From NCBI GenBank assembly GCA_963736015.1, contig CAVTNG010000011.1:68442-132441 (forward strand): a DNA stretch of 64,000 nucleotides. Reading direction: 5' to 3'. Source of the stretch: an uncultured Chloroflexia bacterium (lineage in GTDB: Bacteria; Chloroflexota; Dehalococcoidia; DSTF01; JACRBR01). A program made the position numbers and the translations under genes. The notes below the pieces were generated by a model that was not told the origin of the DNA, searched no databases, and worked only from the letters and a program-made list of their open reading frames with translations. Of the stretch, positions 4,923-49,884 are shown piece after piece (the stretch's first letter is position 1; each line of letters opens with the position of its first letter).

Positions 4923-5336
4923 TCAGGCGGCAGCGCGCGCGGCTGGAGTGTGGGTGGCGGTGATGCCGAGCGCGGCGGCTACGGTCTGCAGCTCCTCGAG
5001 CAGGTCGTCGAGGTCGACATCACCGGCGAGCGCGACGACGGCCGACAGGTCGCTCGTCTCCAGCTCGCCGGTGTCGAACATGCTGAGCAGCGCGTCGCTG
5101 CCCTCCGCGGGCGAAGCCACGAGGTCCGTTTCGCCGCCGGGAGCTGCGTCTGCGGTTAGAGCGCCATCCGCCGCGGCCTCGTCCGACTGGCCCGGCGCGT
5201 CGCCCTCGTCCCCTATCAGCAGCGGCGGGTCGTCGTCGTCCGGTTCCTCCGGCATCGCCGAGGTCGGCGGGATCTCCGCCGCGGCAGCTTCCACCGCGCG
5301 CGCCAGCTCTTTGTCTTTCTTCTTGCCAAAGGCCAC
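4923..5336 (-). CDS. Highly acidic 137-aa hypothetical protein
   Basis: Intact ORF with a Lys-rich N-terminus followed by low-complexity D/E/A-rich sequence (EEPDDDDPPLL...DVDLDDLLEEL). No family recognised. Confidence 0.6.
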   Translation of the reverse strand: MAFGKKKDKELARAVEAAAAEIPPTSAMPEEPDDDDPPLLIGDEGDAPGQSDEAAADGALTADAAPGGETDLVASPAEGSDALLSMFDTGELETSDLSAVVALAGDVDLDDLLEELQTVAAALGITATHTPAARAAA

Positions 5337-11513: not shown

Positions 11514-12330
11514 TTAATCGCCCCGGCGCAGGAAGCTCTCGACTGCCTCGAGCCATTCCGGATCCTCGCCGCCACCGGTCCGCGGCGCGAGGACGCGCAG
11601 GCGTGCGTTCGGGAGCATGGCCGCGAGCTCTTCGGACAACTCGGGCTGACGGAATCCGATGGCGGGGCGGCAGAGCACGAGCGTTGGCATCCGCAGCTGA
11701 AGGACCATCGCGCGAACATCGATATCAGCCGTCACCTGCCGAAAACACGGCAGCGCTTCGGGATCCATCGACGCGCGCAAGAGCGCGGCGCGCTGCTCGA
11801 TGTCGAAGTCCTCGCTGGAGAAACGGTGCTCCCACGTCGCCTGCGAGAGCGTATACGAACTCCCACTCTTCGTTCGTGCGTGGGTGGGCCTCCGCGCGCG
11901 CTCGCACAGCCGGAAGATCATAATAGTCGCGTCCACACACGTAGACGTGATCCAGGATCAGGTGGCTCACACGCTCAGGGTGGGCGGCCGCGTAGGCGAT
12001 CGCCGCCGGGCCGCCGGACCATCCACCCCAGAGGGCAAACCGGTCGCGCCGCAGAGCGTTGACGACGGCCTCGATATCAAGGACGCGAGCCTCCAGCGAG
12101 AAGTCTCGTGAGGAGCGCTCCGACAGTCCGGAGCCACGCCCGTCGTACTGGACGACGAGATAGCGTTCTTCGAGCGCTTGTACGGTCGGGCGAACCGCCG
12201 TGTAGCTTCGGCGCAAGAGCAGGTGGCTGCCCGAAATCGAACTGGCGCGCAGGAGCGCTGCGCCCTCGCCGGCGGCCTCAAAGGCGATGCGGCAACCATC
12301 GGCGCTGGTGGTGTACTGGATCTCCGGCAT
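11514..12330 (-). CDS. Alpha/beta-hydrolase domain, either a separate gene or the C-terminal half of a SARP fusion; one internal frameshift near 11930
   Basis: ORFs 11725-12330 and 11514-11936. Strings: VVQYDGRGSGLSE, FALWGGWSGGPAA (nucleophile elbow), LVLCRP. Confidence 0.7.
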
Positions 12331-13097
12331 CGGCGGAGCGACATCAGTAGCCTGTCGCTGCTCGATCTCCCCGGCGAGATCTGCGTCTCCTTCGCCGGCG
12401 CCACGCCGATCTGGATGGCCAGCTCGGCTCGCGTCGCTTCGTAGTGCCGCAGTGCTCCCACCGGATTTCCAAGCGCATTCAACGCCCGCATCACGCCCCG
12501 ATGCGATTCTTCTCGCTGCGGGTCGATTGCCGCAGCCGCCTGGAATCGGCGCAGCGCGATCTCCGGCGCGCCATCGCGTTCATGACGCTCGGCCGATGCT
12601 AGCAGTACACGGAGGTGCAGCGAGCGCAGGCCCTCGCGCAGCGTCTCGGCCCAGGGCTCGTGGCTGTCAGCTTCCAGCAGGTCTCCGGCGTAGAGCGCGA
12701 GCGCCGCGTCGAGCGCCGCTTTTGCACCATCCGCGAGAGCCGCCTCTGCCGCCTCACGGAAGGCCACGACGTCGATCCACACATCAGGGTGCAGCTCAAC
12801 GAGCGCGCCCGAGCGTCGAACGACATCGCTCATCGATCCGGGCAGGCGGGATCGGAGCCTGTGGACGTTCTTTCGCAGATTGCTCGCCGCCGCATCACCG
12901 TCAAGTTCGGGCCAGAGCGCGTCGGCAATGCGGTCCCGATGCATGGCGCGTCCCGGCTGGAGCGCGAGCAGCTTCAGGACGGCCGCAGCCTTCCGGCGCG
13001 GCCACCCGTCATCGATGAGCATCTCATCGCCGACCGAAACCGAGAAGCGGCCAAGCAGTTGCACCCGCACCTGCCGGCCGCACGTGTCACAGGTCAT
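12331..13097 (-). CDS. SARP-family transcriptional regulator (OmpR-type DNA-binding domain plus BTAD)
   Basis: N-terminal 255 aa of ORF 11967-13097. Strings: VQLLGRFSVSVGDE, LLALQPGRAMHRDRIADALWPE, LYAGDLLE, HRGVMRALNALGNPVGALRHYE. The frame of the downstream hydrolase stays open across the junction. Confidence 0.8.
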
Positions 13098-13374
13098 CGC
13101 TGCACCAACCTCCCCCTGTTGGTCGCTGTCGATGCCTCGCCCCCGCCGAGGTAGATTTGATTTTCCTCACGACTTGACACCCTGTCAATGCCGATCGCGA
13201 GCAATCTACATCGGTGGGGAACGCGCAGGGGACGGGCAGGGAACGCCCCGCACGTCAATATCGCCGCAACGAACGCCGCACGCGCGGGGCGTTGAAGCCG
13301 CGCGTCATTCCCCGCTAGCTATTCGGAACCGGCCGGGCAAGTCTTTTGTCTTCTTCAGCTGAGGAGGGAGCACC

Positions 13375-16300
13375 GTGCAACCGCATACGACACGAACGAA
13401 TTACGGCTCAGAACGGGGCTGGGCGCGCGGCGCGCTCCTAGCAGTCATCGGCGCTGTCGTGGCGATGACCGCGCTTCTCGGCGGGACGCGGCCCGCACAA
13501 GCGCTGCCTCCGTGGATCGTCAACGACGCGGGCGACACCATGGATGTTGCGCCCGGCGACGGCGCCTGCAAGACGGCGACGTCGTCGTGCACGTTGCGCG
13601 CCGCGATCATGGAAGCGAACGCCTGGGCGGGCAGTGAGAGTATCTTGTTCGCCATACCGGGCGGCGGCGTCCACACGATCTTGCCCGGCTTTACCACCGG
13701 CGTTCCCCTGCCCAGCATCACGCCCGGCGCGGTCATCATCGATGGCACGTCGCAGCCCGGCTACGCCGGGACCCCGCTCATTGAGATCCAGGGTAGCTTC
13801 GCCGGCGCGGGCGCCAACGGCATCGCCCTCGTGAGTGCCGGAAACACCGTGCGCGGGCTCGCCATCAATCGCTTTGGCTTTGCCGGCATCCACGTCGCAC
13901 TCGGGTCCACCGGCAACACCATCACCTCCAACTACGTTGGCACCGACCCTACCGGCAGCTTCGGCATCCCCAACGGCACCGGTATCGCGCTGTATGGCTC
14001 GACCAACACCGTCGGTGGGGTCCTCGCCGTCGGCAACCTGATCTCGGGCAATCTCAGCGGCGGCGTGCTCATCGATGCATCAGGGGGGAATGCCGTGAGC
14101 GGCAACCGCATCGGCACGAACGCGGCCGGCACCGCCGCTGTCGGGAACACCTTCGGAGTCCAGATCCGAAATGGCGCAACGTCCAACGTCATCGGCGACG
14201 GTCTCACACCCTACCGAAACATCATCTCCGGCAACACGGCGGAAGGCGTGCGGATTGACGGTGCAGCGACGACCATGAACTTCGTCGTCGGGAATGCGAT
14301 CGGCACGGATGCCACCGGCACGGCAGCCATACCGAACGCGGTCGGCGTCCTCGTTTCGGGTGCCTGGACGAACCACATCGGCTGCGGCTCAGCCGGCTGT
14401 TTCAGCCCCAACTATGGCAACCTCATCTCGGGCAACACCTTCGAAGGGCTCCACCTCACATCCGGCGCCAGTTCGAACACCGTCCAGGGAAACGGCATCG
14501 GCGTAAACGTCGCCGGCACCGGCACGATTCCCAACGGCGGCGTCGGACTGCTCATCGACGGTGGCGCCTACGGGAACAGCATCGGCGGATCCGGCGGCTA
14601 CGCCGGCGGCGACCGCAACTTCATCTCCGGTAACGGCGGCTCCGGCGTCGTGATCGACGGCGTGGGCGCGACGGACAACGAAGTCATCGGTGCCTACATA
14701 GGCACCGATGGACAGGCACTTCGCCCCTCGGCAACGCGGGCGATGGCATCCGCATCAGCAGCGGCGCCGCGTTCAATTCCATCGGTGATGGGAGCGCCGG
14801 CGGCCGCAACGTGATCTCCGGAAACACGCTCGCCGGCATCAACATCCAGTCTGCGGGAAGTGACAGCAACACCATCAGGGGCAACTACATCGGAACCGAT
14901 GCTACCGGCACGGCGGGCGTTCCCAATGCGTCGAGCGGCATCGTCATCGGCAACGGCGATGCCAACGTCGTCGGCGGTCCCGCCGTCGCCGACGGTAACG
15001 TGATCAGCTCAAACATCGGATGTAACGTCTGCGTGTTTGGTCCGGCAACGAACACGGACATCCGCAATAACCTCCTGGGCACGAACGCCGACGCGACGGC
15101 AACGCTCCTCGGAAGCTCGTGGGGCATCATGGTCTCCGGTGATCCCAGCGGCACGACCGCCATCAACAACAACACGGTCGGCGGTAACGGGATCGGGATC
15201 TACATCACCGCGAGCGTCGGTATCCTGGGCTACTTCCAGGCCGGGAACACGATCGGGACGGACCAGACCGGCGCGACGATCCTGTCGAACACCGGCGATG
15301 GGTTGTACTTCGATGGCGGAGCCAGCGTCTGGCAGTTTGGCCTGGGCAAGATCGCGTACAACGGCGGAAACGGCGTGGGTATCGTTGGGGCTGCAACGTC
15401 CAACATTTGGGTGAGCAACAACAATGAGATCCATGATAACGGCGGGCTCGGGATCGATTGAACGAAGATGGGCCGACCGCTAACGACGTGAAGGATGCGG
15501 ATAGCGGTCCAAACGGAGTGCAGAACGCGCCGACAATCATCGCCGCAACCGTGTCCAATGTCTCGCTTACCTTGAACAGTACCCCGCACAGGCAGTATTG
15601 GGTCGATCTCTTCTGGAGCACGACGTGCGATTCCTTCCGGGGGTGGAGAGGGCGAGCACCTCATGGGTGGAGCGATCGGTTTCTACACCGACGCGAACGG
15701 AACGCTGAATATCGGCGGTCTATTGGCGCCCGCTCCTCCGGGCTCCTTCATCACCGCGACCGCATCAGACATGGGCGACTTCGCCGGCCAGACGGCTCCG
15801 AGTTCATCCGAGTTCTCGAATTGCGTGCCACTCGTCCCTGCGTGCGTCGGAGATCTCGACTGCGACGGCATCACAGATTTGGCGGGCGATAATTGCAATC
15901 AATTCAGCAATCCTTCTCAGGCGAATGCCGACTCGGGCCCGCCACCGTGGTGGGCAGGAAGTGGGAGTATCGATAACGGCAGCGGGATAGCGGCCAACGA
16001 CACCACCATCCCCAACGGAGACGGTGAGGGTGACCCCTGCGACCTCGATCGAGACAACGATGGGTTATTTGACGTCTACGATAGCGAACCGCTGCTTGCG
16101 GTCTCGTGCGGTGGCCTGTTCGTAGGTGCGACCGACGCCAACCCCAACCCCGGCTACGGCGACAACACCGACGTTGACGGCAACGGCCCGTCCTGGGATA
16201 CAGACAAGGACGGGGTTCGCGATGGTGTCGAGTGCGACCTCGGCTTCAACCCGCGCAGCCCGGCCTCGAAACCATCGCAGGCCCAATGCGCCAACCTCCC

Positions 16301-39044: not shown

Positions 39045-39503
39045 TTGGGCGACACCGCCAACTGGGAATTCGCGGCCGTGGTCGCGGCCGTGACGATCGG
39101 CCTCGGGGGCCTGCTGGTGTTCACGATCGCGGCGATTGTCGCGTCGTGGCAGCTGTTCGGCCGCGCGGGGCGTGCGGCAAGCGAAGGGGCGAAGGCGGCG
39201 CTGGCGGTGCAGGACCTGGCACGGTACCTGGCGGCGCGCGAGGCGAGTCACGCCTCGGAGCCGGTCACCAAGATTCGCGAGGCGGCGGCGGCGCTGGAAG
39301 GCCTGCGGCAGGATGCCCGCGATTTGTTGGGCCAGCAGCAACAGCTCATCGAGGCGGTACGAAACCTGGTGGAAGCGGGCGTACTGCGGACCGAAGCCGT
39401 CCGCGAGGCGCCCGTCGATCTCGAGGCCTCAGTACGGCGCCTGAAAGAGACGCTCGACCGCGTGGCTTCTGCGGTCGCGGCGCTCGGCGAACGGCCGGTA
39501 TAG
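39045..39503 (+). CDS. Membrane-anchored coiled-coil hypothetical protein (152 aa)
   Basis: Intact ORF with a TTG start, one N-terminal transmembrane helix, then Ala/Glu/Arg-rich helices. Confidence 0.5.
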   Translation: MGDTANWEFAAVVAAVTIGLGGLLVFTIAAIVASWQLFGRAGRAASEGAKAALAVQDLARYLAAREASHASEPVTKIREAAAALEGLRQDARDLLGQQQQLIEAVRNLVEAGVLRTEAVREAPVDLEASVRRLKETLDRVASAVAALGERPV

Positions 39504-39512
39504 GAGGACGAC

Positions 39513-40557
39513 GTGGTGCATCACCCCGACCCTATCGCAAGCCTGTCGCCGGATGCCGATCCGGTTTCCGTGATCATGGCATCACTGCTGCCGCTGCACA
39601 CCGCGTCGTCGATCGACTGGCTGGCGGACGCGGTATGCACCGCCGCCGAACACGCGATCCACGCGAGCTATGCGCTCCTCTACCTCGAGGGGCAGGATGG
39701 CAAGCTCGAACGAGCTGCCGGCGTCCGACGTGCGGCGCAGGGCGCTTCAACGCGCGGTCGACGAGTTTGGCGAAGATGTCCTCGGCGCGCGACTCGCTCC
39801 GGCGTCAGCGCCAACGATTGCCGGCGTGCTGCGTGAGGGGACGCCCATCGTCGCACCGGCGGCCGACGTTCTCCGCGGTCTCATGGCAATCGACGCCGCA
39901 CGCGAGGCGCAGGAGCGGCTGGGAGCCCGGGCGCTGGCAGTCGTGCCGCTCGAGTCATCCGGAGAGCGGGTGGGCGCGCTTATCGGCGTCTGCGGAGAGC
40001 GGCCGACAACGGATCAGCTCAGAATGTTCGGAGCGCACGTGGCGACGGCGCTCGTGAAACTACGGCAGGAGACAGCAGCCCGTGAGCGCACGGTGCTGGA
40101 CATCGTGCGCTCCGTATTCGACGCCCGGAAAATCGAGTCCGAGCTCCAGAAGGAGATCGCGCGGGCGCAGCGGTACAAGCATGAGGTCTCGATCGTGGTG
40201 ATCGAAGCGACGAACGTGCGTCTGTTGCGCGAACGGTTCGGTGAATTCCTGACGGATCAACTGGTCCAGCGGCTCGGGGGGGCGCTGGCCGAAAGCGCGC
40301 GGGACATCGACGTCATCGGGGCCTTCAAGGAGTCCGGCTACACGATGATTCTGACGCAGGCCACCTCGCAGAACATCCTGCCCGTCGCCGAGCGGCTACT
40401 GCGCACCGCGCAAGAGACGCGGCTAGAGGATGACGTGCCAGGGCTCGAGCTGCACCTGGTGTGCGGATGGGCGACGTGCCCGAACGATGGCACCACCACG
40501 GAGGCGATGTTCTCAGCCGCCGAGGGGCGGATGTACGGGACGGCGCGCGTCGCGTAG
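39513..40557 (+). CDS. GAF domain plus degenerate GGDEF-domain protein; one frameshift near 39700
   Basis: ORFs 39513-39836 and 39670-40557. ESGYT occupies the position of GGDEF. Confidence 0.65.
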
Positions 40558-40600
40558 GCGGCGGTAGATCGCTCCCCGCGGAGCCAGTTACGCCACGTCT

Positions 40601-41183
40601 TCAAGCGCGACAATCGGAGATCTCGTCCTTCGGCGTGAACAGTTGCGGGGCACGCTGCTGGAGGTCGGACTGCACTTCGGCCGGCGTGGTGTCGGGCGTG
40701 ATCCAGACCTTCAGGGCAGCACGGCGGCCGTCGTAGTCGAGCAGTGCCACGTCTCGGACGGCGGGGTGAGCGCTGATGGCGTCGTCCACCGTGCGGAGGT
40801 CGAGCGGGCTCGCGGCGCTCTCGAACTCGATGCGGAAGCAGGTCGTACCGCCGGCCTCGTACGGGTCAAGCGGGGCGATGGGCGAGAGTGCGGCGTCGGA
40901 CGAGTCATTGAGCGTCGGGGCCCCTGGCCGGACCGGCTGAGGCTCGGCCGTGTGAACGGTCGTGGGTGCCAGCGGCGCGATGGCGGCGACGGTGGACGAT
41001 CGTGCACCGCCGCCGACGAGGGTCGCGATCTGGTCGAGCACGGACCCGGCGCTCATAATTCTCAGGAAGCAGCGACTTGAGGCGGGCGGTCGCATCCGAA
41101 GCGCGGGCAAGCGCGGCCTTGAGGTCGGCGAGGGCCTCCTCGAGCTGCTGCGCGGGGGCGGGTTCGTGGGTAGTTGCGGACAT
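40601..41183 (-). CDS. Hypothetical protein (about 193 aa); one frameshift near 41060
   Basis: Start MSATTHEPAPAQQLEEAL (frame of 40905-42062) joins the tail of ORF 40601-41419. Confidence 0.5.
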
Positions 41184-41318
41184 AGCGGCTCCTCCTCTTC
41201 CTCTAATGGTGTTATCGGCCTGGTGGCCGGCCTGAGCCACCCTCTTGAACCGGGGTTGGCGCCCCCAGCCGTGTCCGGGAGAGGCGGCAGGTGTAGGATC
41301 GCCGTGGAGGAGTCTCGG

Positions 41319-42500
41319 ATGGCGAGCGGCGTGGACATCGAGCAGGCGAAGGAGCGGGCGCGGCAGGCGGTGGATGCCATCGCCGGTGAGCTCACGCGCA
41401 TCTCGCGGGAGATCCACACTTACCCCGAGCTGGCATTCGAGGAGCGCCGCGCCGCGGCACAGCTCGTGCCGTTTCTCGAGACACAGGGGTTCGCCGTGGA
41501 GCGGGGCGCCTACGGGATGGAGACGGCGTTCCGCGGCGAGTGGGGGCACGGGCCGGTGACCATCGCGCTGTGCGCTGAGTACGACGCCCTGCCGGAGATC
41601 GGGCATGCGTGCGGGCATAACCTCATCGCGACGGCCGGCGTGGGGGGCGCGGCAGCGCTGATCAAGGCGATCAGGCCGGAGGACGCACGCATCGTCATCC
41701 TGGGGACGCCGGCGGAGGAAGGGACGGGCGGTAAGTGCGTCATGGTGGAGAAGGGGGCGTTCGACGACATCGATGTGGCGATGATGGCGCACCCGATGGC
41801 GGTGGACATCGTCGACCCGCCGATGCTGGGGGTGATCCATGTGGACGTGGAGTATCGGGGCAAGGCGGTGCACGCGTCGGTCGGGCCGGAGCAGGGAAAG
41901 AACGCGCTCGACGCCCTCGTGACGGCGTACCAGGCGATCGCGCAGCTGCGGCAGCACATCAGGCGGGACGCGCGGATCCACGGGATCATCACGCACGGCG
42001 GCGCGGCGCCGAACATCGTGCCGGACTACACGGCGGGGAAGTTCTACATCCGTGCGCTCCATCCGAAGTACCTGGAGGAGTTGCGGCAGCGGGTCGGGCG
42101 TGCTTCGAGGCAGGGGCGCTCGCGACGGGCTGTGAGCTGGTCATCGACTGGGAGAAGTACCCGGTGTACCAGCCGATGCGGACGAACCGGGCGATGGCGG
42201 ATGCGTACCGGCGGAACGCGGGAGGCGATCGGGCCGTCAGTTCGTCGACCTTCAGAATATCTCGACGGGGAGCACGGACATGGGGAACGTGAGCCAGGCG
42301 GTGCCATCGATCCACCCGACGTTCGGCGTGGGGAGATGATCTTCAACGACATGCCGGAGTTCACAGCGGCGGCGATCACGGATGCGGCGCACGCCTCGAT
42401 GCTGGAGACGGCGCAGGCGCTGGCGATGACGGGCGTCGACCTGGCGCTCGATCCGGAGCTGGTGCGGGCGGCGAAGGATGAGTTCGCCGGACGGCGGTAG
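41319..42500 (+). CDS. M20-family amidohydrolase/peptidase (M20D, AbgB-like); frameshifted near 42090-42340
   Basis: Within ORF 40962-42500. Strings: HTYPELAFEE, GHACGHNL, GTPAEEGTGGK. Confidence 0.8.
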   Translation: MASGVDIEQAKERARQAVDAIAGELTRISREIHTYPELAFEERRAAAQLVPFLETQGFAVERGAYGMETAFRGEWGHGPVTIALCAEYDALPEIGHACGHNLIATAGVGGAAALIKAIRPEDARIVILGTPAEEGTGGKCVMVEKGAFDDIDVAMMAHPMAVDIVDPPMLGVIHVDVEYRGKAVHASVGPEQGKNALDALVTAYQAIAQLRQHIRRDARIHGIITHGGAAPNIVPDYTAGKFYIRALHPKYLEELRQRVGRASRQGRSRRAVSWSSTGRSTRCTSRCGRTGRWRMRTGGTREAIGPSVRRPSEYLDGEHGHGEREPGGAIDPPDVRRGEMIFNDMPEFTAAAITDAAHASMLETAQALAMTGVDLALDPELVRAAKDEFAGRR

Positions 42501-42501
42501 G

Positions 42502-42766
42502 CTAGCGGCCTTCCACGTACGATGCCGAGATCTCGGTTGACCAAGCGTTCAGCTTTCGATAGAAGTTCCAGACTAGGCCGACGTTGTACATCGCGCCCAC
42601 GTTCTCCGGGCTGGCCTTCCATCGGGAACCTCAGTACGAAGTCCGGCTCGGGCGGCTCACGAACGGCGTCCAGCGCCTCGTGGATCCATACCCGTTCGAC
42701 CTCGGATGCGACCTCTTCGAGAAAGTAGCGGGCGTCTGACCCGAGGAGCGCATCAACGTCAGGCAC
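42502..42766 (-). CDS. Hypothetical protein (about 87 aa); one frameshift
   Basis: GTG 42766 (ORF 42044-42766). After a 1-nt shift near 42600 it reads ...GENVGAMYNVGLVWNFYRKLNAWSTEISASYVEGR, with the stop at 42502-42504. Confidence 0.45.
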
Positions 42767-42968
42767 GCTTGCGGTTTGCGCGCCTCTTTCTCTGCCATTT
42801 CGCGTTGACCTGTTCCCATGGGACTCCGCGACCGTCCTTTAACTCGTCTGCGGCGGCGCGCATCTGCGCCATGAACTCGGGGTCGGATTGCTTCTTGGCG
42901 ACCCAGGCGCGGCGGCGCTCGATCTCCTCCGGAGAGGCGGTGTGCTCGGGGCGGGATTCGTCTTTCAT
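42759..42968 (-). CDS. Hypothetical 69-aa charged protein; overlaps the downstream gene by 8 nt
   Basis: Tail of ORF 42759-44102 from ATG 42968: MKDESRPEHTASPEEIERRRAWVAKKQSDPEF... Confidence 0.45.
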   Translation of the reverse strand: MKDESRPEHTASPEEIERRRAWVAKKQSDPEFMAQMRAAADELKDGRGVPWEQVNAKWQRKRRANRKRA

Positions 42969-44173
42969 GGCGGCCTCTGATTGCGTTGAGTGATCGCGAT
43001 CTGGGGCGAGGGCGCGGATGCGGGCGACGGCGTCGGGGAGGATCTCGAGGACGCGGTCGATGTGCTGCGTGGTGTTTTCTGTGCCGAGGGTGAGGCGGAG
43101 GCTGCCGCGGGCGAGGTAGCGTCGGCAGGCCCATGGCGACGAGGACGTGCGAGGGCTCGAGGGAGCCGGTGGTGCAGGCGGAGCCGCTGCTGGCGGCGAT
43201 GCCCTGAGGTCGAGCTGGATGAGGACGGCCTCGCCTTCGACGCCTTCGAAGGCAGAAGCTGGAGCTGTTCGGGAGGCGCTGCGCGGGTCGGCGGCGCCGG
43301 TGACGATGTGCCGGGGATGCGCGCGGGCAGCTCCTGCGAGAGGTGGTCGCGCAGGGCGGCGAGGCTGCGCGTTGCGGGCGTCGAGCTCGTCGTAGGCGAG
43401 GCTGGAGGGCGGTGGCGAGGCCGACGGCGCCGGCGACGTTCTCGGTGCCGGCGCGGCGGTTGCGCTCCTGGGAGCCGCCGACGGCCTGGGCGCGAAGGGG
43501 GTGCGCGCTGCGGACGTAGAGGGCGCCGACGCCCTTCGGGCCGTAGATCTTGTGGGCGGCGATGGAGAGCAGGTCGACGCCGAGGCGTCGACGTTGATGT
43601 CGAGGGCGCCGGCGGCCTGGACGGCGTCGGTGTGGAACGGCGATGCGGCGGTCGCGGTCCTTGACGATGCCGGCGAGCTCGGCGATGGGCTCGATGGTGC
43701 CGACCTCGTTGTTGGCGTACATGATGCTGACGAGGACGGTGTCGGGCGTCGAGGGCGCTGGCGAGGGCGTCGGGGTCGACGAAGCCTTCGCTGTCGACGG
43801 GCAGGTAGGTGACGTCGAAGCCGTCGCTTCTCGAGCTGCTCGACGGCGTGGAGGACGGCGTGGTGCTCGATGGCGCTGGTGATGATGTGGCGGCCGCGGC
43901 CGCGCTGGGCGGCGGAGGCGACGCCGCGGAGGGCGAGGTTGTCGGACTCGGTGCCGCCGCTGGTGAAGACGATCTCGTTGGGCTTGCGCCGAGGATCGCG
44001 GCGACGGTGCGGCGGGCGGCATCGAGGGCTTTGCGGGCTTCGCGGCCCTCGGCGTAGATGCTGGAGGGGTTGCCCCAGGCGTTCGGCGAGGTAGGGGAGC
44101 ATCGCCTCGACGACGCGGGGGTCGAGCGGGGTGGTGGCGGCGTGGTCGAGGTAGATGCGGTCGGTGGGGTCAT
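42965..44173 (-). CDS. Cysteine desulfurase (NifS/IscS-type class V aminotransferase); many frameshifts
   Basis: Homologous strings are scattered over three overlapping minus-strand ORFs: IYLDHAATTPLDPRV, NPSSIYAEGREA, IVFTSGGTESDNLALRG, ITSAIEHHAVL, SIAAHKIYGPKGVGALYV. Confidence 0.8.
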   Translation of the reverse strand: MTPPTASTSTTPPPPRSTPASSRRCSPTSPNAWGNPSSIYAEGREARKALDAARRTVAAILGASPTRSSSPAAAPSPTTSPSAASPPPPSAAAAATSSPAPSSTTPSSTPSSSSRSDGFDVTYLPVDSEGFVDPDALASALDARHRPRQHHVRQQRGRHHRAHRRARRHRQGPRPPHRRSTPTPSRPPAPSTSTSTPRRRPALHRRPQDLRPEGRRRPLRPQRAPPSRPGRRRLPGAQPPRRHRERRRRRRPRHRPPASPTTSSTPATRSLAALRDHLSQELPARIPGTSSPAPPTRAAPPEQLQLLPSKASKARPSSSSSTSGHRRQQRLRLHHRLPRALARPRRHGPADATSPAAASASPSAQKTPRSTSTASSRSSPTPSPASAPSPQIAITQRNQRPP

Positions 44174-44190
44174 CGCTGCCTCATTCTAGA

Positions 44191-44550
44191 GGGAAGTGGG
44201 GAGCGGGGTGTGGGACTTGCGGCGATAGGCGGGGCTTTGAATGATGTGCTGAATTTGGCGAAATGTGACGTTTTCTGATTGGAATAGGACGCAAAGCAAT
44301 CTTTCGTGGGTGATTGAATTGCGGGCGGGTCGCGGGGGAGGTGAGAGGCGGGACGTGCGACGTGGGAGGACGGGCGATGGGTGGTGGGCATGCGGGGATT
44401 CTAGGGCGGGGTAGGGTGAATTCTAAGGGGGTGCTGGCGTGTTGGGGAGCCCTCGCCCTGCCCTGCGGCTACCCTCTCCCAAGGAGGGAGAGGGCGACGG
44501 CGCGACACGGGAGGCGAGCGGTGGGAGAGGGGAGGCCGGACGGGCGCCGT
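44191..44550 (+). repeat. Intergenic repeat cluster: G-rich GGGAAGTGGG-type blocks, an AT-richer core and the hairpin CCCTCTCCCaaggaGGGAGAGGG (44472-44494)
   Basis: Read directly from the sequence. It shares GGGACGTGCGACGTG (44350-44364) and flanking similarity with 49676-49812. Confidence 0.7.
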
Positions 44551-44554
44551 GGCG

Positions 44555-44944
44555 TCAGAAGCCGATGAGGAGTTCGACGGGCTCGCCTTGTTCGAGGTGG
44601 GTGATGAGTTCGGTGACGGCGTCTTGTTCTTCTGGCCAAGCGGCAGCGTGCGTACGGAGGGTGCGGATGGCTTCGGGCGTGGGTTCGATGAAGCAGTATC
44701 GAAGCTCGAAGTCTTCGAGATGGCGCTCGAGGGCGTTCATCAGTTGGAAGCTGACGCTGCGGGCTGGGGAGGTGGGGTTGATCTGCATCGTGTAGCCCAT
44801 TGGTTCGTCCCTTCGTTCCGTGCGAATCCTCGCTCTTCTGAGAGCCGCGTCGTCGATCTCGTTGTAGTCTTCGTGTTTTCCGAGGTGCGCGTCAGCGCGA
44901 GAACACATCGTCGCAGAGCGCGCGCCCGCATACGGCGCAGTCAT
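44555..44944 (-). CDS. Hypothetical protein encoded downstream of mcrC (129 aa, or 81 aa from ATG 44800)
   Basis: Intact ORF. The internal start MGYTMQ is preceded by GAAGGGA. No family recognised. Confidence 0.5.
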   Translation of the reverse strand: MTAPYAGARSATMCSRADAHLGKHEDYNEIDDAALRRARIRTERRDEPMGYTMQINPTSPARSVSFQLMNALERHLEDFELRYCFIEPTPEAIRTLRTHAAAWPEEQDAVTELITHLEQGEPVELLIGF

Positions 44945-45022
44945 CGCGTGAACTGTAGGCTTGACTTACAGGCAGTAGTTCGCCGCAACCGCCCGCGCAG
45001 AACTGCATCGCGTCCTGAGTTT

Positions 45023-46474
45023 TCACATGCGCACTTCCTTTGCGAATTCTAGTGCAACCTCATGCACCGGTCGGCCCATCGGCATGGCAGTAAGGAGCAG
45101 ATCGATGCGCCGCGTGCCTGCCGCCACGGAGGCCGTGTGGAAAAGGCGACCGCGCGCGCGCAGCGATAGCCACGTGGCTTGCCGGCACGGATATACGAGG
45201 CAGACGACGATGCGCGGCGTCGCGGCGACATTCGCGTAGGCGAGTACCTGCAACAGGTCGGCTCGATGGCGATCTCGAAGCTCCCCTTCCAGATCGCTCC
45301 AGCGTTGCACCTGCATCTCTTCCCAATGCTCTTTGTACTTAGCGTCGACGATGATGGTCGTATCGCCGCGCTCCAGCATTAGATCAGGAATTAGCGACTT
45401 CTGCGATCCTAGATACGACGGCTCCCAGTGGATGGGAGTCACGGTTTGCCGTTGACGGCCGGTTGGGGACGACGCCACCAATATGGCGGCGACTGCGATA
45501 AGCACGGTTTCGACCCAGGCTTCAAAGAACTCCTCCATTGACATTGACCAGGGCAGTCCGCTCAGGTCGCTGAGGCCCGCCAAGCCGCGCTCGTTGGCCG
45601 TCCACTCGATCGCCTGGAGCCCATCACGGAACGCGGGCGTCTTGAGCGGGCCGCGGAGCCACGCGTCGTAATCCCGTGGTATTGGCGGTCGTGATGGAAC
45701 GTCACCGACGCGCTCGAGAAGCGACACGCACTCTCCGATAAGTTTGAGCACGAATGCGCCCATGGTGCGTTGCGTTGAGAGTGATTGGAGTTGCTTGTTG
45801 AGCGTGAAGCGGATCGCTGCGCGCGCAGATCGCGATCAGAGCGCAACTCCGGGAAACGGCACGGGACGTCGAGGAAACGGGCGCGGGTCGCGTAGCGGGT
45901 CGCGTACTGCGGCCAGTCGACCGACCCACGGGGAGCCGCGCGTACGTCGGAGACAATCTCGAAGCGACGCTGAAGCTGGTCGAGTAACGCACGAATCCTG
46001 AAGAGCACGATCGTCGAGAGGAGCCACGGCGGGATCTTGCGATCGGTCTGCGGGAGGAGTGGCAACGAGAGCGGCTCGGGGACAATCCGCCAACCCATGT
46101 CCGCGAGCATCGGGCCGATGCCGGGCCACTCGAAGCGGGGTTTGATGATGAATCCGTAGTCAGGCTTGCCGGTGGTCGGCGACACGAGCGGTACCGCGCC
46201 GACTTTCGTGTTGGTGCGGAACACGGATCAACGGAGTGACCTCTGTACTGCTGCTCCACGGAAGCGCCGAGATGGCGGAGGACGGCGCGGTTGCGTTCAA
46301 TGAACTGGTCACCGAGGCGCGCTGATTGCCCCGCGATGTCACGCGGAGGCGTCCCGCGAAGCAGATTGGATGCCGGAACAACGAGCATAGATGAGTCGGT
46401 GGCTTCGAAGGAGTTCGACGCCTCTCGGCGTGGCACGCGGATATTCGGCGGCGGGGCGGTCGTGCAACCGCCAC
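45023..46474 (-). CDS. mcrC: McrC-like PD-(D/E)xK nuclease subunit of a McrBC restriction system; frameshifted
   Basis: ORFs 45023-45763 (TIIVDAKYKEH, DLLQVLAY), 45562-46224, and part of 45702-46976. Confidence 0.75.
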
Positions 46475-46483
46475 TAGAGGCTA

Positions 46484-47960
46484 TCGATCCATTGCATGTA
46501 GGCGCGCAGGGCGCGCCAGCGAAACCGCTGACAAATCCCTGCGAGACGTACTCCTGAAGCAACGGCAGCAATGAGACGCGAAGGCGTCGCTTCGCGTCGT
46601 CGTCATTCTCCGCGAGGAAGTAGGAGTGGCCCGGGACGAGATCGAGCGCCTCGTCGGTGGCATGCTCGACGAAGATGTCGAGGAGCGGCTCGCATGCATC
46701 GAGCATCAGCGGGCTGCCGTGGGACTCGACCACGCTGAGTTGTGGCCAGAGCTTCGCAAATGCGAATCGACGTCTGACGGCGATGTCGATGACAGCCAGA
46801 CTGCGGTCGGTGCTGTTCATCGTGCCTAGAACATGCAGATTCGAAGGAAGGCGCAGCTTGCTGCCGAACGGTGCGCCGAAGTCGTATGGGAGATCGATCT
46901 CCCGATCAGGCGAGTCAGGCTCGAAGAGATAAATGGCCTCGCCAAGCACTTTTCCATATCCCGCGGTTAAGCTCATCGATCACAAGCAGGTGTTCGCGCT
47001 CGGGATCGGCTGCCGCTGCGGCGGCGGCGAGCATCAATGCTCCCTGGCTTGGGGCAAACCGGAAACCAGATCAGCGTCCGATGCCGAAGGTGCGAGGCCT
47101 CCGACGAAGTTCTCGTACGTCGTGTTGGGGTGAAACTGGATCACGGATCCTCGGCGCGCGTAGTGGGATTGCAGGAGTTCTAGCGCCATGTGTGTCTTAC
47201 CCGTGCCCGGTGGGCCCTGAAGGACGACATATCGACGAGCCTTGAGGAGCGACGCGACATCGCCACGCTCGATGCTCGGCAAAAGGTGGTGGAACCATGC
47301 ATCACGTATTGCTTTCGCTCCCGCCTGCGCGCTCGCGAGGGGTAGGAAGCCGCGCTCCTCGAACATGAGATCAAGGAACGCGAGTAGCGCTTCACGCGTC
47401 TTCGTGGACTCCGCCCTAGGGACGTAAATGCCGTACAGCTCACGCCCATACCGCTCGAGCGCGGGTCGATGGTCGGGGAACTCGGTCAGGAGTTCAGAGG
47501 GGAGCGCAACATCCGTCCGGACAGGATCGTGCTTTGCCCAAGCAACGCGGGAGCCGTTTCCGTGAGTAGTGTTCAGCCAGGCACATAGGCCTGGATCTTA
47601 TGCGCATGCCCCGGGCGGCCCAGTATCGATTCGTCGGGATCGAGCCCCGCTGTGCCTACAACGAACGTCAGCAGGCATGGTTTTCCCGGCTCGGCCGCCG
47701 GAAAGATGGCAATCGACATGCCGCCGTACGGCCCACTGTCTTGCGTCTGGGGATGGATATAGGCGGCAAAATCGAACGCTGTCTTCCGCCATCTGAGGCG
47801 CGCGCAGCTTGACTGACCTCTTGGCGTCATCCGGGTAGCGGCCCTTACCCGAACGAAACAACGAGTCGAGGAAGGTGTCGGTCGCAAGCTCTTTGTCGGT
47901 CGGCCAAGGCGACTCGCCTGCGACGACCTTGGCGAGCGCAGCGAGATCGCTCACGGGCAT
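46484..47960 (-). CDS. mcrB: McrB-like AAA+ (GTPase-type) restriction subunit with an unassigned N-terminal domain; frameshifted
   Basis: Fragments 47598-47960, 47573-47887, 47034-47366 (VVLQGPPGTGKTH, FHPNTTYENFVGG) and 45702-46976 (LHVLGTMNSTDRSLAVIDIAVRRRFAF). Confidence 0.8.
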
Positions 47961-47963
47961 CGT

Positions 47964-49373
47964 CTAGACGCCAGGGTCGTGGCGGGCGGTTGTTGTCGCC
48001 GTGGTGCGGGTGGCGGTTAGGTCGGCGGCGGTTTCGGGGCGGGTGGTTTGTTCGAGGGTGATGCGCTGGATGGCGGCGAGGACGGTGCTGTGGTCGCGGT
48101 TGCCGAATTCGCGGCCGATGTCGGCGATGGTGCGGCGGCCGTCTTCCTTCATGAGGTACATGGCGAGGTGGCGGGCGTAGGAGACGTCGCGGGCGCGGCT
48201 GCGGCCACGGAGGTCCGTGGGGCGTGACGCCGGTGCGGCGGCAGACGGCATCGATGATGGCGTCGGGCGCGGCGGGTGACGTCCTCGGGCGCGGGCTGCG
48301 GCGGGCTGAGCGGCGTCAGCGCCTTCTCGATGATCTCGGGCGTGACCTGGCCACCGACGAGCGGGACGTAGGCGAGGACGCGGTTGAGGTAGCCCTCGAG
48401 CTCGCGCACGGTGGGGCAGCATCGCTCGGCGATGACCTCGAGCGCGTGGTCGGGCAGGCGCAGGGCGTGGATGCGGGCCTTGGAGCGGAGGATGGCGAGG
48501 CGCGTCTCGAAGGACGGCTTCTGGAGATCGACCATGCAGTCCCCACTGGAGGCGCGAGCGGAGCGCATCGCCGAGGCCGGTGATCTGCGCGGGCATGCGG
48601 TCGCCGGAGACGATGATCTGCTTGCCGGCGGCGTGGAGCTCGTTGAAGGTGTGGAGGAACTCGTCCTGGAACTTCGGCTTGGCCTCGAAGAACTGGACGT
48701 CATCGAGCAGGAGGACATCGGCGTGGCGGTAGCGTCGGCGGAAGGACTCGATAGAGGAGCTGGTGAGCGCGCGGACGAAGTCGTTGCCGAAGCGCTCGGC
48801 GGGGGCGTAGACGACGTTGAGGCGCTGGGCCCAGGCCTCGTGGCCGATGGCGTTGAGGAGGTGGGTCTTACCGAGGCCGGAGGCGCCGAAGATGGTGAGC
48901 GGGTTCATCGCGGCCGGGCTCGGCGAGGACGCGGCGGGCGGACTCGAAGGCGAGGCGGTTCTCATCGCCAACGACGAAGGAGTCGAAGGTGAGCGCGGGG
49001 TTGAGCGCCGGAGGCGCGACGGAGCGATTGGCGGAGCGCTCCGCCGCGCCCTCAGGCTCGAGACAGGAGAACAGGCAGGTCGAGGTACCTCGGGGCGGAC
49101 GACCTCGAAGGCGACATCGATCGGATGACCGAGGACGCGGGCGAGCGTCTTGGTGATGAGCGGGCGGAGGCGCGTCGAGAGCCACTCCGTGGCGAAGTCG
49201 GTCTGGGCGCCGATGATGAAGCGGCCGTCCTCGAGGCGGAGGCCGATGGTGTCGCGCAGCCACGTATCGAAGTTGGCGCGGGTGACGAGCATCTCGAGCT
49301 GGCCGAGGGTGGAGGACCAGACGTTGGCGGGGGTGTGGTGCGGCGCGGGCGCTGCGATCGCGGTCGTGGTCAT
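47964..49373 (-). CDS. dnaA: Chromosomal replication initiator DnaA; frameshifted
   Basis: ORF 47964-49670, with the real start MTTTAIAAP at 49373. Strings: FDTWL, IFGASGLGKTHLLNAIG, LLLDDVQF, HSTVLAAIQRI. The central part lies in the frames of 48149-48718 and 48316-48546. Confidence 0.88.
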   Translation of the reverse strand: MTTTAIAAPAPHHTPANVWSSTLGQLEMLVTRANFDTWLRDTIGLRLEDGRFIIGAQTDFATEWLSTRLRPLITKTLARVLGHPIDVAFEVVRPEVPRPACSPVSSLRARRSAPPIAPSRLRRSTPRSPSTPSSLAMRTASPSSPPAASSPSPAAMNPLTIFGASGLGKTHLLNAIGHEAWAQRLNVVYAPAERFGNDFVRALTSSSIESFRRRYRHADVLLLDDVQFFEAKPKFQDEFLHTFNELHAAGKQIIVSGDRMPAQITGLGDALRSRLQWGLHGRSPEAVLRDAPRHPPLQGPHPRPAPARPRARGHRRAMLPHRARARGLPQPRPRLRPARRWPGHARDHREGADAAQPAAARARGRHPPRPTPSSMPSAAAPASRPTDLRGRSRARDVSYARHLAMYLMKEDGRRTIADIGREFGNRDHSTVLAAIQRITLEQTTRPETAADLTATRTTATTTARHDPGV

Positions 49374-49675
49374 CGCGCGCGGGCCGGGCTGTGGGATAGG
49401 TGGCGGGTGGCGAGGCGTGGCGGCGGCGTCCTGCAACAGGCAACGTGGCTCCCTCCCGGCGGTTGGGTCAGATGATGAAGATGAGCGAACCAGGGTCAGA
49501 CAACTGTGTGTGAGTGTCTTGAGCGCGCGAATCCCGAAACCTGCGTGCGCGACCTCGCCCCTGTGTTGTTCCCTCTGCCCTCTGGAGGGAACACCCGCCG
49601 TTGAGCGGGCGGGTGAGGTCGTCGGAATACCCTCAGGACAGGGTGGAGAATACATTCGGGGTGATGGCAATCAAG

Positions 49676-49812
49676 CCTTTTATGACGACTCTCGCGCCAA
49701 ATTTGCACCCCTTTTCAAAGCGTTGCAGAAGGCGGTGATAATGTTGCGATTACGTGTACTGCGCGGTTGGGAAGTGGGACGTGCGACGTGAGAAGTGGGT
49801 CGATTGGTGGAG
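49676..49812 (+). repeat. AT-richer element with a GGGACGTGCGACGTG core (49776-49790), related to 44236-44395
   Basis: Aligned by eye. Shared landmarks in the same order and orientation: CAAAGC...GGTGAT...TTGCG...GGGACGTGCGACGTG.GA.G..GGG..GAT.GGTGG. Confidence 0.55.
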
Positions 49813-49884
49813 CGACTGACGGTTGAGTGACGTAGCGATCGTGGAGACGAGGCACGCGTACCGCGATGCGTGTGATCGCGCGCG

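Follow-up and report, generated by a model that had tools for sequence, protein, structure and literature searches.

The subject of this report is a restriction locus of the McrBC type that lies directly behind the replication initiator gene dnaA in a 64,000-nucleotide stretch of DNA from an uncultured Chloroflexia bacterium (contig CAVTNG010000011.1). The whole stretch is called the window below. On its minus strand the gene order is dnaA, a spacer of 3 nucleotides (nt), mcrB, mcrC and a small open reading frame (ORF). The features of this block are:

47964..49373, minus strand: dnaA, replication initiator; DnaA is 62-78% identical to that of related Chloroflexota loci
47346..47960, minus strand: N-terminal domain (N-domain) of McrB, about 205 amino acids (aa), a putative target reader; conserved, so far unassigned to a family
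46474..47345, minus strand: AAA+ GTPase domain of McrB; AAA_5 match with E 1.5e-13; mcrB stop codon TAG at 46476-46474
45026..46436, minus strand: mcrC; PF10117 McrBC match with E 6.2e-10; start probably GTG at 46436
44555..44800, minus strand: small81, an acidic protein of 81 aa with an isoelectric point (pI) of 4.6; ATG at 44800, stop at 44557-44555

The mcrB gene spans 47960-46474 on the minus strand. With its frameshifts bridged the product matched Pfam AAA_5 (E 1.5e-13). It carries a Walker A motif (GPPGTGKT, 47216-47193), a Walker B motif (LLVIDELNRG, 46989-46960) and the sequence MNSTDRS (46820-46800), in which N, D, R and S were invariant among 50 homologues. It contains NxxD, the signature motif of canonical McrB (PMC11090510). 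A 50-homologue profile matched E. coli McrB (6UT6, 7VSR) with E 2e-49, at profile positions 145-468 only. The NCBIfam McrB model PRK11331 was hit with E 5.9e-28 at 97.8 bits, i.e. below its equivalog cut-off of 637; the equivalog cut-offs were reached neither by McrB nor by McrC. McrC is 48-70% identical to the McrC proteins of syntenic loci, and an N-terminal extension upstream of ATG 46388 is seen in relatives. Its PD-(D/E)xK nuclease motifs are LIPDLML (45394-45374) and VDAKYK (45349-45332), and PD...DAK is kept in relatives. The order mcrB-then-mcrC was found in all dnaA-linked loci. The motif hallmarks of canonical McrBC are present, a GTPase with Walker A and B, NxxD, and an adjacent downstream McrC with PD-(D/E)xK residues, and bridging the shifts in mcrB and mcrC revealed no in-frame stop and no motif loss. 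Judged by these motifs, the system classifies as a canonical-type (NxxD) McrBC type IV restriction system, and the McrB/McrC pair looks catalytically competent. The McrBC operon proposed in a first-pass annotation of the window is supported by the matches to AAA_5, E. coli McrB and PF10117 together with these motifs. PADLOC, which the annotation had suggested as a check, returned only generic ATPase or restriction endonuclease matches for McrB and none for McrC. Membership in the E. coli-type McrB subfamily (ADAM/DUF3578; PRK11331 equivalog) was rejected on the lack of a PF12102 match at E up to 10, on the low equivalog score and on the lack of a solved structure with a Foldseek E better than 0.28 for the N-domain.

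The reading frames are interrupted throughout. Frameshift-aware alignment to intact orthologues required 5 frameshifts for mcrB, 4 for mcrC and 6-7 for dnaA. The density was about one per 250-300 nt in all genes inspected (dnaA, mcrB, mcrC and a cysteine desulfurase gene; window positions 40900-49700 and beyond). The dnaA gene, from the ATG of MTTTAIAAP to the TAG at 47966-47964, is spread by the assembly across three frames, and the cysteine desulfurase gene further downstream is likewise split across three. Short-read fragments from wetland metagenomes, present at low coverage, matched the window perfectly over 140-200 nt and stopped aligning exactly at the predicted shift at 46225. At 44899 such a fragment exposed one surplus base in the window, a 1-nt assembly insertion. 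The sequencing runs held only single-read fragments of the organism; these sufficed to demonstrate indel errors, though not to confirm the dnaA-mcrB junction. No RNA run containing the stretch was found. Because the essential dnaA is as 'broken' as mcrBC, the frameshifts are assembly noise, i.e. indel errors and not gene decay. The assembly is unpolished, and therefore pseudogene calls in the window are unsafe.

We then looked at the locus in other genomes; loci are numbered L001, L004 and so on. The nearest McrB, 61% identical, among 8,000 candidates scored from 5.8 billion proteins, is encoded on a metagenomic contig (L001) with the order PAP2 (minus strand), DinB, dnaA, a small Cys-rich ORF, mcrB, mcrC and an 81-aa ORF. 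A scan of species-representative genomes with the L001 DnaA identified close relatives as Chloroflexota metagenome-assembled genomes (labelled Dehalococcoidia, Chloroflexia or Chloroflexi). A scan of metagenome contigs with McrB gave 11 loci only, mostly distant, as the patterns were too specific. In all, dnaA-mcrB-mcrC occurs in ten distinct genomes or contigs (window, L001, L007, L008, L011, L096, L097/98, L099/101, L106 and L107). A PAP2 gene diverges from dnaA in every locus whose contig extends upstream of dnaA; beyond the block the DNA differs in nearly every linked genome. Three homologues are not linked to dnaA: L004 is surrounded by housekeeping genes, the neighbors of L108 are a transposase gene, a helix-turn-helix gene and an HNH gene, and L109 adjoins an outer-membrane-protein gene and hence belongs to a diderm host. 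The placement of a defence nuclease directly behind dnaA, which the first-pass annotation had called unusual, is thus confirmed and conserved in ten genomes or contigs; relatives keep the dnaA-mcrB linkage and do not show the genes dispersed without it.

A maximum-likelihood tree of 38 McrBs was calculated with IQ-TREE. The ten linked McrBs formed one clade (support 91/93), which was single in 92% of the bootstrap trees. It also holds eight McrBs of undocumented context, and it excludes L004, L108 and L109. Window and L001 were sisters in the DnaA tree (98/97) and in the McrB tree (97/90), and the pairwise identities of DnaA and McrB were correlated (r = 0.61). Because of the monophyly of the linked McrBs, the matching sisters and the DnaA-McrB correlation, we favor one ancestral insertion followed by vertical descent. 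The dnaA-mcrBC arrangement would then have arisen once, in the ancestor of an uncultured soil/wetland Chloroflexota clade. Vertical inheritance since then would have been accompanied by several losses and by one replacement by a restriction-modification module with a 5-methylcytosine (5mC) methyltransferase.

Such losses are visible. L010, L012 and L013 have PAP2-dnaA without McrBC. The DnaA of L013 hardly differs from the one of L008, which has McrBC, so the loss in L013 is recent. In L006, a complete chromosome, the slot (12113-14375) is occupied by a fusion of Vsr with a C5-cytosine methylase (PF03852, E 8.5e-24; PF00145, E 3e-40) and by a GIY-YIG nuclease. Behind this module follow a C-terminal remnant of McrC (about 100 residues) and an intact small81. 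McrBC systems are incompatible with incoming methyltransferases. By analogy, the replacement hints at a McrBC that attacks 5mC DNA in this clade; it is the pattern expected in that case. L006 resembles a methyl-dependent system that was displaced by a methylating one.

According to the first-pass annotation mcrB sits where dnaN normally sits. This holds for bacteria in general and fails for this lineage. A DnaN query from one actinobacterial dnaA locus found dnaN beside dnaA in 67 of 70 Actinomycetota loci; near the dnaA genes of Chloroflexota it was found in 0/14 loci (tblastn, with limited cross-phylum sensitivity). Among these 14 are the window over its full 64 kb, the relatives without McrBC and one more distant Dehalococcoidia genome. 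A displacement of dnaN by McrBC is contradicted, as dnaN is absent beside dnaA even in relatives that lack McrBC.

How tightly the two genes are joined can be read directly from the junction letters (...GGCGTC TAG ACG ATG CCC GTG...). The dnaA stop is at 47966-47964, the mcrB ATG at 47960-47958 and the gap of 3 nt is as had been claimed. In L107 the gap is -1 nt (TGATG overlap), in L099/101 12 nt, in L011 13 nt and in L008 17 nt; thus a gap of -1 to 17 nt is found in five of the ten linked loci. L106 has 38 nt, L007 70 nt and L097 94 nt. The gaps in L001 (308 nt) and L096 (about 380 nt) are both occupied by a Cys-rich ORF. Relatives with clean assemblies have equally tight junctions. No terminator-like site was found between dnaA and mcrB in the window. 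Because of the tight junction and the lack of such a site, co-transcription with dnaA is the most economical reading, and mcrB is most likely transcribed within the dnaA operon, to judge from the spacing. To this extent the tight junction supports the dnaA read-through into mcrB proposed earlier.

The block is also set apart by composition. Positions 44555-47960 have 62.1% G+C, whereas none of 538 non-overlapping 3.4-kb segments of the 64 kb falls below 63.6% (mean 67.3%, sd 1.8); the flanks have 68-74%. Three lines counted by hand in the first-pass annotation (31/60, 31/60 and 34/60) were exact on recount. It had taken the low G+C as support for a horizontal acquisition of at least the AAA+/McrC part. 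A recent acquisition in this genome is not supported, as the same dip is present in all linked relatives and their McrBs are monophyletic. In the linked loci mcrB and mcrC have 61-67% G+C with 70-81% at third codon positions (GC3), dnaA 69-73% with a GC3 of 87-98%, and the flanks 65-72%. The restriction genes are 5-10 G+C points and 12-22 GC3 points below dnaA (window, L001, L007, L008, L011, L097, L099, L106 and L107). In the unlinked hosts, which have a lower G+C, McrBC differs from the host by no more than 2 points in L108 and L109 and is about 5-6 points lower in L004. Because the linkage is common to ten genomes or contigs with the same dip, the dip is not a sign of recency; in this clade the lower G+C belongs to the gene family itself and is not a trace of recent arrival. 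Possibly the deficit reflects weak expression, weak codon selection or an occasional allele replacement by recombination.

The N-domain of McrB could not be assigned to a family in the first-pass annotation, and family and structure searches bore this out. There were zero matches in Pfam (E up to 10), PHROGs, NCBIfam and PDB sequences. One homologue (P0032) bears a precomputed PF28529 label, which may or may not cover the N-domain. The AlphaFold2 model of the N-domain of an intact orthologue had a mixed alpha/beta fold with a predicted local distance difference test score (pLDDT) of 92.9 and a predicted template modelling (TM) score of 0.91. Foldseek of this model against 350,542 PDB chains gave a best E of 0.28 and TM scores of at most 0.24, nothing significant. 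Neither a McrB chain nor a known modified-base reader was among the 50 PDB matches listed. The best E against BFVD was 0.21, again not significant. The PDB library searched should include the E. coli McrB N-domain (3SSC). Thus, structure prediction, advised in the annotation, yielded a confident fold without a significant structural neighbor, and the domain did not turn out to be a well-known McrB reader. Provisionally we place it in no known family. It is characterized by the motifs YIHP.N/Q..SG.YGG.S, GT.GL.PD..LGRPGHA(R/H)K and AWAK.DP.R.D (also AWAKQDP.R.D). The McrB search of the 5.8 billion proteins gave at least 3,872 significant matches among the 8,000 candidates scored. The best 120 were all about 490 aa long and 53-61% identical, with 89-100% query coverage including the N-domain. 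Across 28 sequences 36 columns of the N-domain were invariant.

Behind mcrC the first-pass annotation had noted an extra ORF of 129 or 81 aa without recognizable family. The 81-aa form and the lack of a family were upheld, the 129-aa form was not. A 129-aa ORF does exist at 44555-44944; only the 81-aa form is conserved among relatives. The orthologues have 81-84 aa and the same start Met. The longer form was rejected because they begin at this internal Met and the extension holds an indel error. A word-indexed profile search found 21 members of the small81 family. When 1.84 billion cluster representatives were scanned exhaustively with HMMER, 31 matched, of which about 26 are approximately 80 aa long. 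All members are acidic (pI 4.1-4.7). The AlphaFold2 model (pLDDT 87.7) has the order beta-beta-alpha-beta-alpha-alpha-beta. No match was accepted in Pfam, PADLOC, PHROGs or PDB; PADLOC PDC-S02 was sub-threshold (E 0.0019) and was not trusted. The best PDB fold match, DMP12 from Neisseria (3W1O; TM 0.52, E 2.1, probability 0.20), was not significant.

The distribution of small81 is patchy. It is present in six of the ten dnaA-linked loci (window, L001, L011, L096, L097 and L099), and in L102 a tandem pair (1530-2044) lies directly 3' of a contig-truncated McrC. It is absent in L007, L106 and L107, all with intact linked McrBC, and the L008 contig ends before the site. Unrelated small ORFs replace it in L106 and L107; depending on the locus, mcrC is followed by small81, by one of two unrelated ORFs (84 aa and 77 aa) or by no small ORF. 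In L006 an intact small81 persists after the McrC remnant without a working McrBC. L103-105 contain tandem small81 paralogues (L103 395-967) without McrBC on the 1.7-kb contig. This pair adjoins a DUF433 gene and then a small ORF, a toxin-antitoxin-like pair, and an opposite-strand ORF fragment at L103 1-264 had no Pfam match. All small81 contexts examined fall in the same Chloroflexota clade. The patchy presence, together with L006 and L103 without McrBC, ruled out an obligate third McrBC subunit. The idea of a fixed third component had to be abandoned likewise, as small81 is missing from three intact loci and survives the McrBC replacement in L006; nevertheless it is often conserved with McrBC. 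By its conservation small81 is a real, clade-specific, frequent yet dispensable neighbor of mcrC. It may be a regulator or an inhibitor-type accessory; a functional linkage to McrBC cannot be separated here from shared ancestry.

Cys-rich ORFs were noticed as well. One at 45059-44895 on the minus strand (VKTQDAMQFCAGGCGELL...CAVCGRALC...) has a GTG start that overlaps the mcrC stop (ATGTGA). It was rejected as a gene, since the insertion at 44899 shifts its frame and no significant similarity links it to Cys-rich ORFs in relatives. The latter are zinc-ribbon-like, of 100-130 aa, and lie 3' of dnaA (L001 7703-8008, L006 11430-11822, L096 about 4960-5140), between dnaA and mcrB in L001 and L096 and between dnaA and the replacement module in L006. 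The window is without it.

Taken together, the locus is likely a McrBC variant with a new reader-type domain, which one Chloroflexota clade has retained by vertical descent within its dnaA operon. Several points weigh against this. The N-domain shows the same degree of conservation as the GTPase domain, and reader modules seldom do. The identities of McrC and DnaA are uncorrelated (r = 0.13), to which frameshifts in assemblies like that of L096 may contribute noise. Neither simple vertical descent nor amelioration explains why the G+C deficit outlasts such divergence. The genomes surveyed in the clade are few, co-transcription with dnaA is argued from spacing alone and the exact 3-nt junction of the window is itself part of an error-prone assembly. 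The unameliorated deficit and the McrC identities would agree with the dnaA 3' flank being an insertion hotspot, which related lower-G+C McrBC cassettes repeatedly enter or replace, and the shared site would then not mean descent. The same can be said of the L006 slot with a different defence module beside a McrC remnant, of the differing small ORFs after mcrC and of the sequence beyond the block, which changes almost from genome to genome. Repeated capture from outside should, however, interleave linked and unlinked McrBs, and the ten linked ones are one clade with the three tested unlinked ones outside. Further, the DnaA and McrB trees both pair the window with L001. Neither a gene for an integrase or transposase nor an att-like repeat was found in or beside the block of any linked locus, and the repeat that flanks the block in the window is unconserved in relatives. 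We leave the hotspot a small but real chance. A recent arrival along the lines of the first-pass annotation, an island acquired in the genome of the window that displaced dnaN, is very improbable. The block has the lowest G+C of the window, as such an island might, and defence genes are commonly mobile. Against this, layout and G+C dip are the same in relatives with DnaA only 62-78% identical, the nearest McrB scored is syntenic in a relative at only 61% identity and dnaN was found in none of the 14 Chloroflexota loci versus 67 of the 70 actinobacterial controls. A mobile genomic or defence island was also rejected as a class, in view of the missing mobility gene and the unconserved flanking repeat; the variable presence of the block is loss or replacement in a monophyletic lineage.

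Long vertical retention in an essential operon, with a start/stop overlap in L107, could also indicate that McrBC was co-opted for replication initiation, e.g. for checking the modification state of newly replicated or origin DNA. An N-domain that is conserved like the motor, with its 36 invariant columns, and is unrelated to known modified-DNA readers would fit. But the block was lost cleanly at least three times, even between the close L013 and L008, and hence is dispensable. The same family with its N-domain is found in ordinary defence or mobile contexts of other phyla (L108, L004 and L109), and in its nuclease and GTPase motifs the system looks like a functional restriction enzyme. We consider the co-option quite improbable. 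That mcrBC are decaying pseudogenes, as five shifts in mcrB and four in mcrC might suggest, is hardly credible: dnaA has six to seven in the same length, the cysteine desulfurase gene too is scattered over three frames, the places where short-read fragments depart from the window coincide with shift sites and the bridged genes have neither in-frame stop nor motif loss. A bolder proposal is a long shot, namely that McrBC is a stable member of the dnaA operon and coupled to replication initiation, that the N-domain reads a non-classical target and that small81 is a modulator, such as an inhibitor or DNA mimic. If true, a defence-derived nuclease would be wired into a core replication locus and would not be a mobile island.

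For the vertically kept McrBC variant that we prefer, a mode of action can be sketched by analogy with E. coli McrBC. The N-domain, presumed to read modified DNA, would recognize a foreign, probably modified, DNA feature; McrB hexamers would hydrolyze GTP and translocate, and McrC would cut the DNA. Most defence genes do not last long and are distributed patchily. Here, a type IV restriction system has stayed linked to dnaA among genomes whose DnaA proteins are only 62-78% identical, which makes it a case for studying what stabilizes defence systems. It also raises the question whether an operon with an essential, cell-cycle-regulated gene sets the dose of a defence. The N-domain family has at least 3,872 full-length homologues (8,000 candidates scored) but neither a Pfam model in the library used nor a structural neighbor, and thus the target specificity of thousands of McrBCs from soil bacteria is at stake. 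The C5-methyltransferase that took the place of McrBC in L006 hints at 5mC incompatibility and may serve as a testable prediction of the target.

Two further features lie outside the genes of the block:

49374..49884, no strand: intergenic region between PAP2 and dnaA, about 510 nt, G+C about 60%; PAP2 (minus strand)/dnaA divergence conserved in all relatives
44310..44385, plus strand: repeat element 3' of small81; partner at 49745-49810, upstream of dnaA

The intergenic region is presumably the site of the dnaA-operon promoter and possibly of origin sequences. E. coli-type DnaA boxes (at most 1 mismatch; the consensus is that of E. coli) were not found near dnaA. The sole promoter-like match in 49374-49884 is on the plus strand and points to PAP2. 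The two repeat copies are in direct orientation and bracket the dnaA-mcrBC-small81 block. They share a core of about 60 nt including GGGACGTGCGACGTG, an exact 15-mer that has only these two sites in the 64 kb. Read on the dnaA-sense strand, the copy of GGGACGTGCGACGTG upstream of dnaA belongs to four tandem heptamers CAC(G/T)TCN. Relatives were found to lack the repeat in the corresponding positions. As island boundary it was therefore rejected (a bipartite origin was also considered); an intergenic repeat specific to this genome is the likelier reading. L099 4696-12209 shares the neighborhood of window 39500-44200, i.e. cysteine desulfurase, small ORFs, M20 peptidase and a GGDEF gene. Relatives other than L099 diverge from the window beyond the block, and the 3' side of dnaA is a synteny breakpoint in the clade.

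How does the locus compare with known systems? E. coli K-12 McrBC (EcoKMcrBC; 6UT6, 7VSR, 6HZ4) has the same two-gene operon mcrB-mcrC, a GTPase with Walker A, Walker B and NxxD and a McrC with a PD-(D/E)xK nuclease. In contrast to E. coli McrB, the N-domain of the window is not the ADAM/DUF3578 reader of 5mC, and whereas the K-12 system is in a variable defence region, McrBC of the window sits in the dnaA operon. McrB variants with other readers have been described, YTH-like in Thermococcus gammatolerans, PUA/EVE-like in Staphylothermus marinus, and EVE fusions (PMC11090510). They and the window have the same design, in which the GTPase, conserved and partnered by McrC, carries an N-terminal module that varies. 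No sequence or structural similarity to those readers was detected, and in the thousands of homologues of the window type the N-domain matches the motor in conservation. The three-gene relatives LlaI and BsuMI also combine a McrBC-like pair with a third gene; this gene, R1, is reported to be a separate DNA-binding module (bioRxiv 10.64898/2026.08.31.748284). Compared with that description, McrB of the window retains its own N-domain, and the extra gene is a facultative one for an 81-aa acidic protein 3' of mcrC. The DNA mimic DMP12 is small and strongly negative like small81 and is the only solved structure with a TM score above 0.5. The two differ in that small81 has no sequence similarity to DMP12; the likeness consists of size, charge and a non-significant fold match. 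Finally, the arrangement recalls the dnaA-dnaN operon of most bacteria, e.g. Bacillus subtilis or Actinomycetota, in which dnaA likewise has a co-oriented gene close behind it that is presumably co-transcribed, except that here the gene after dnaA is mcrB.

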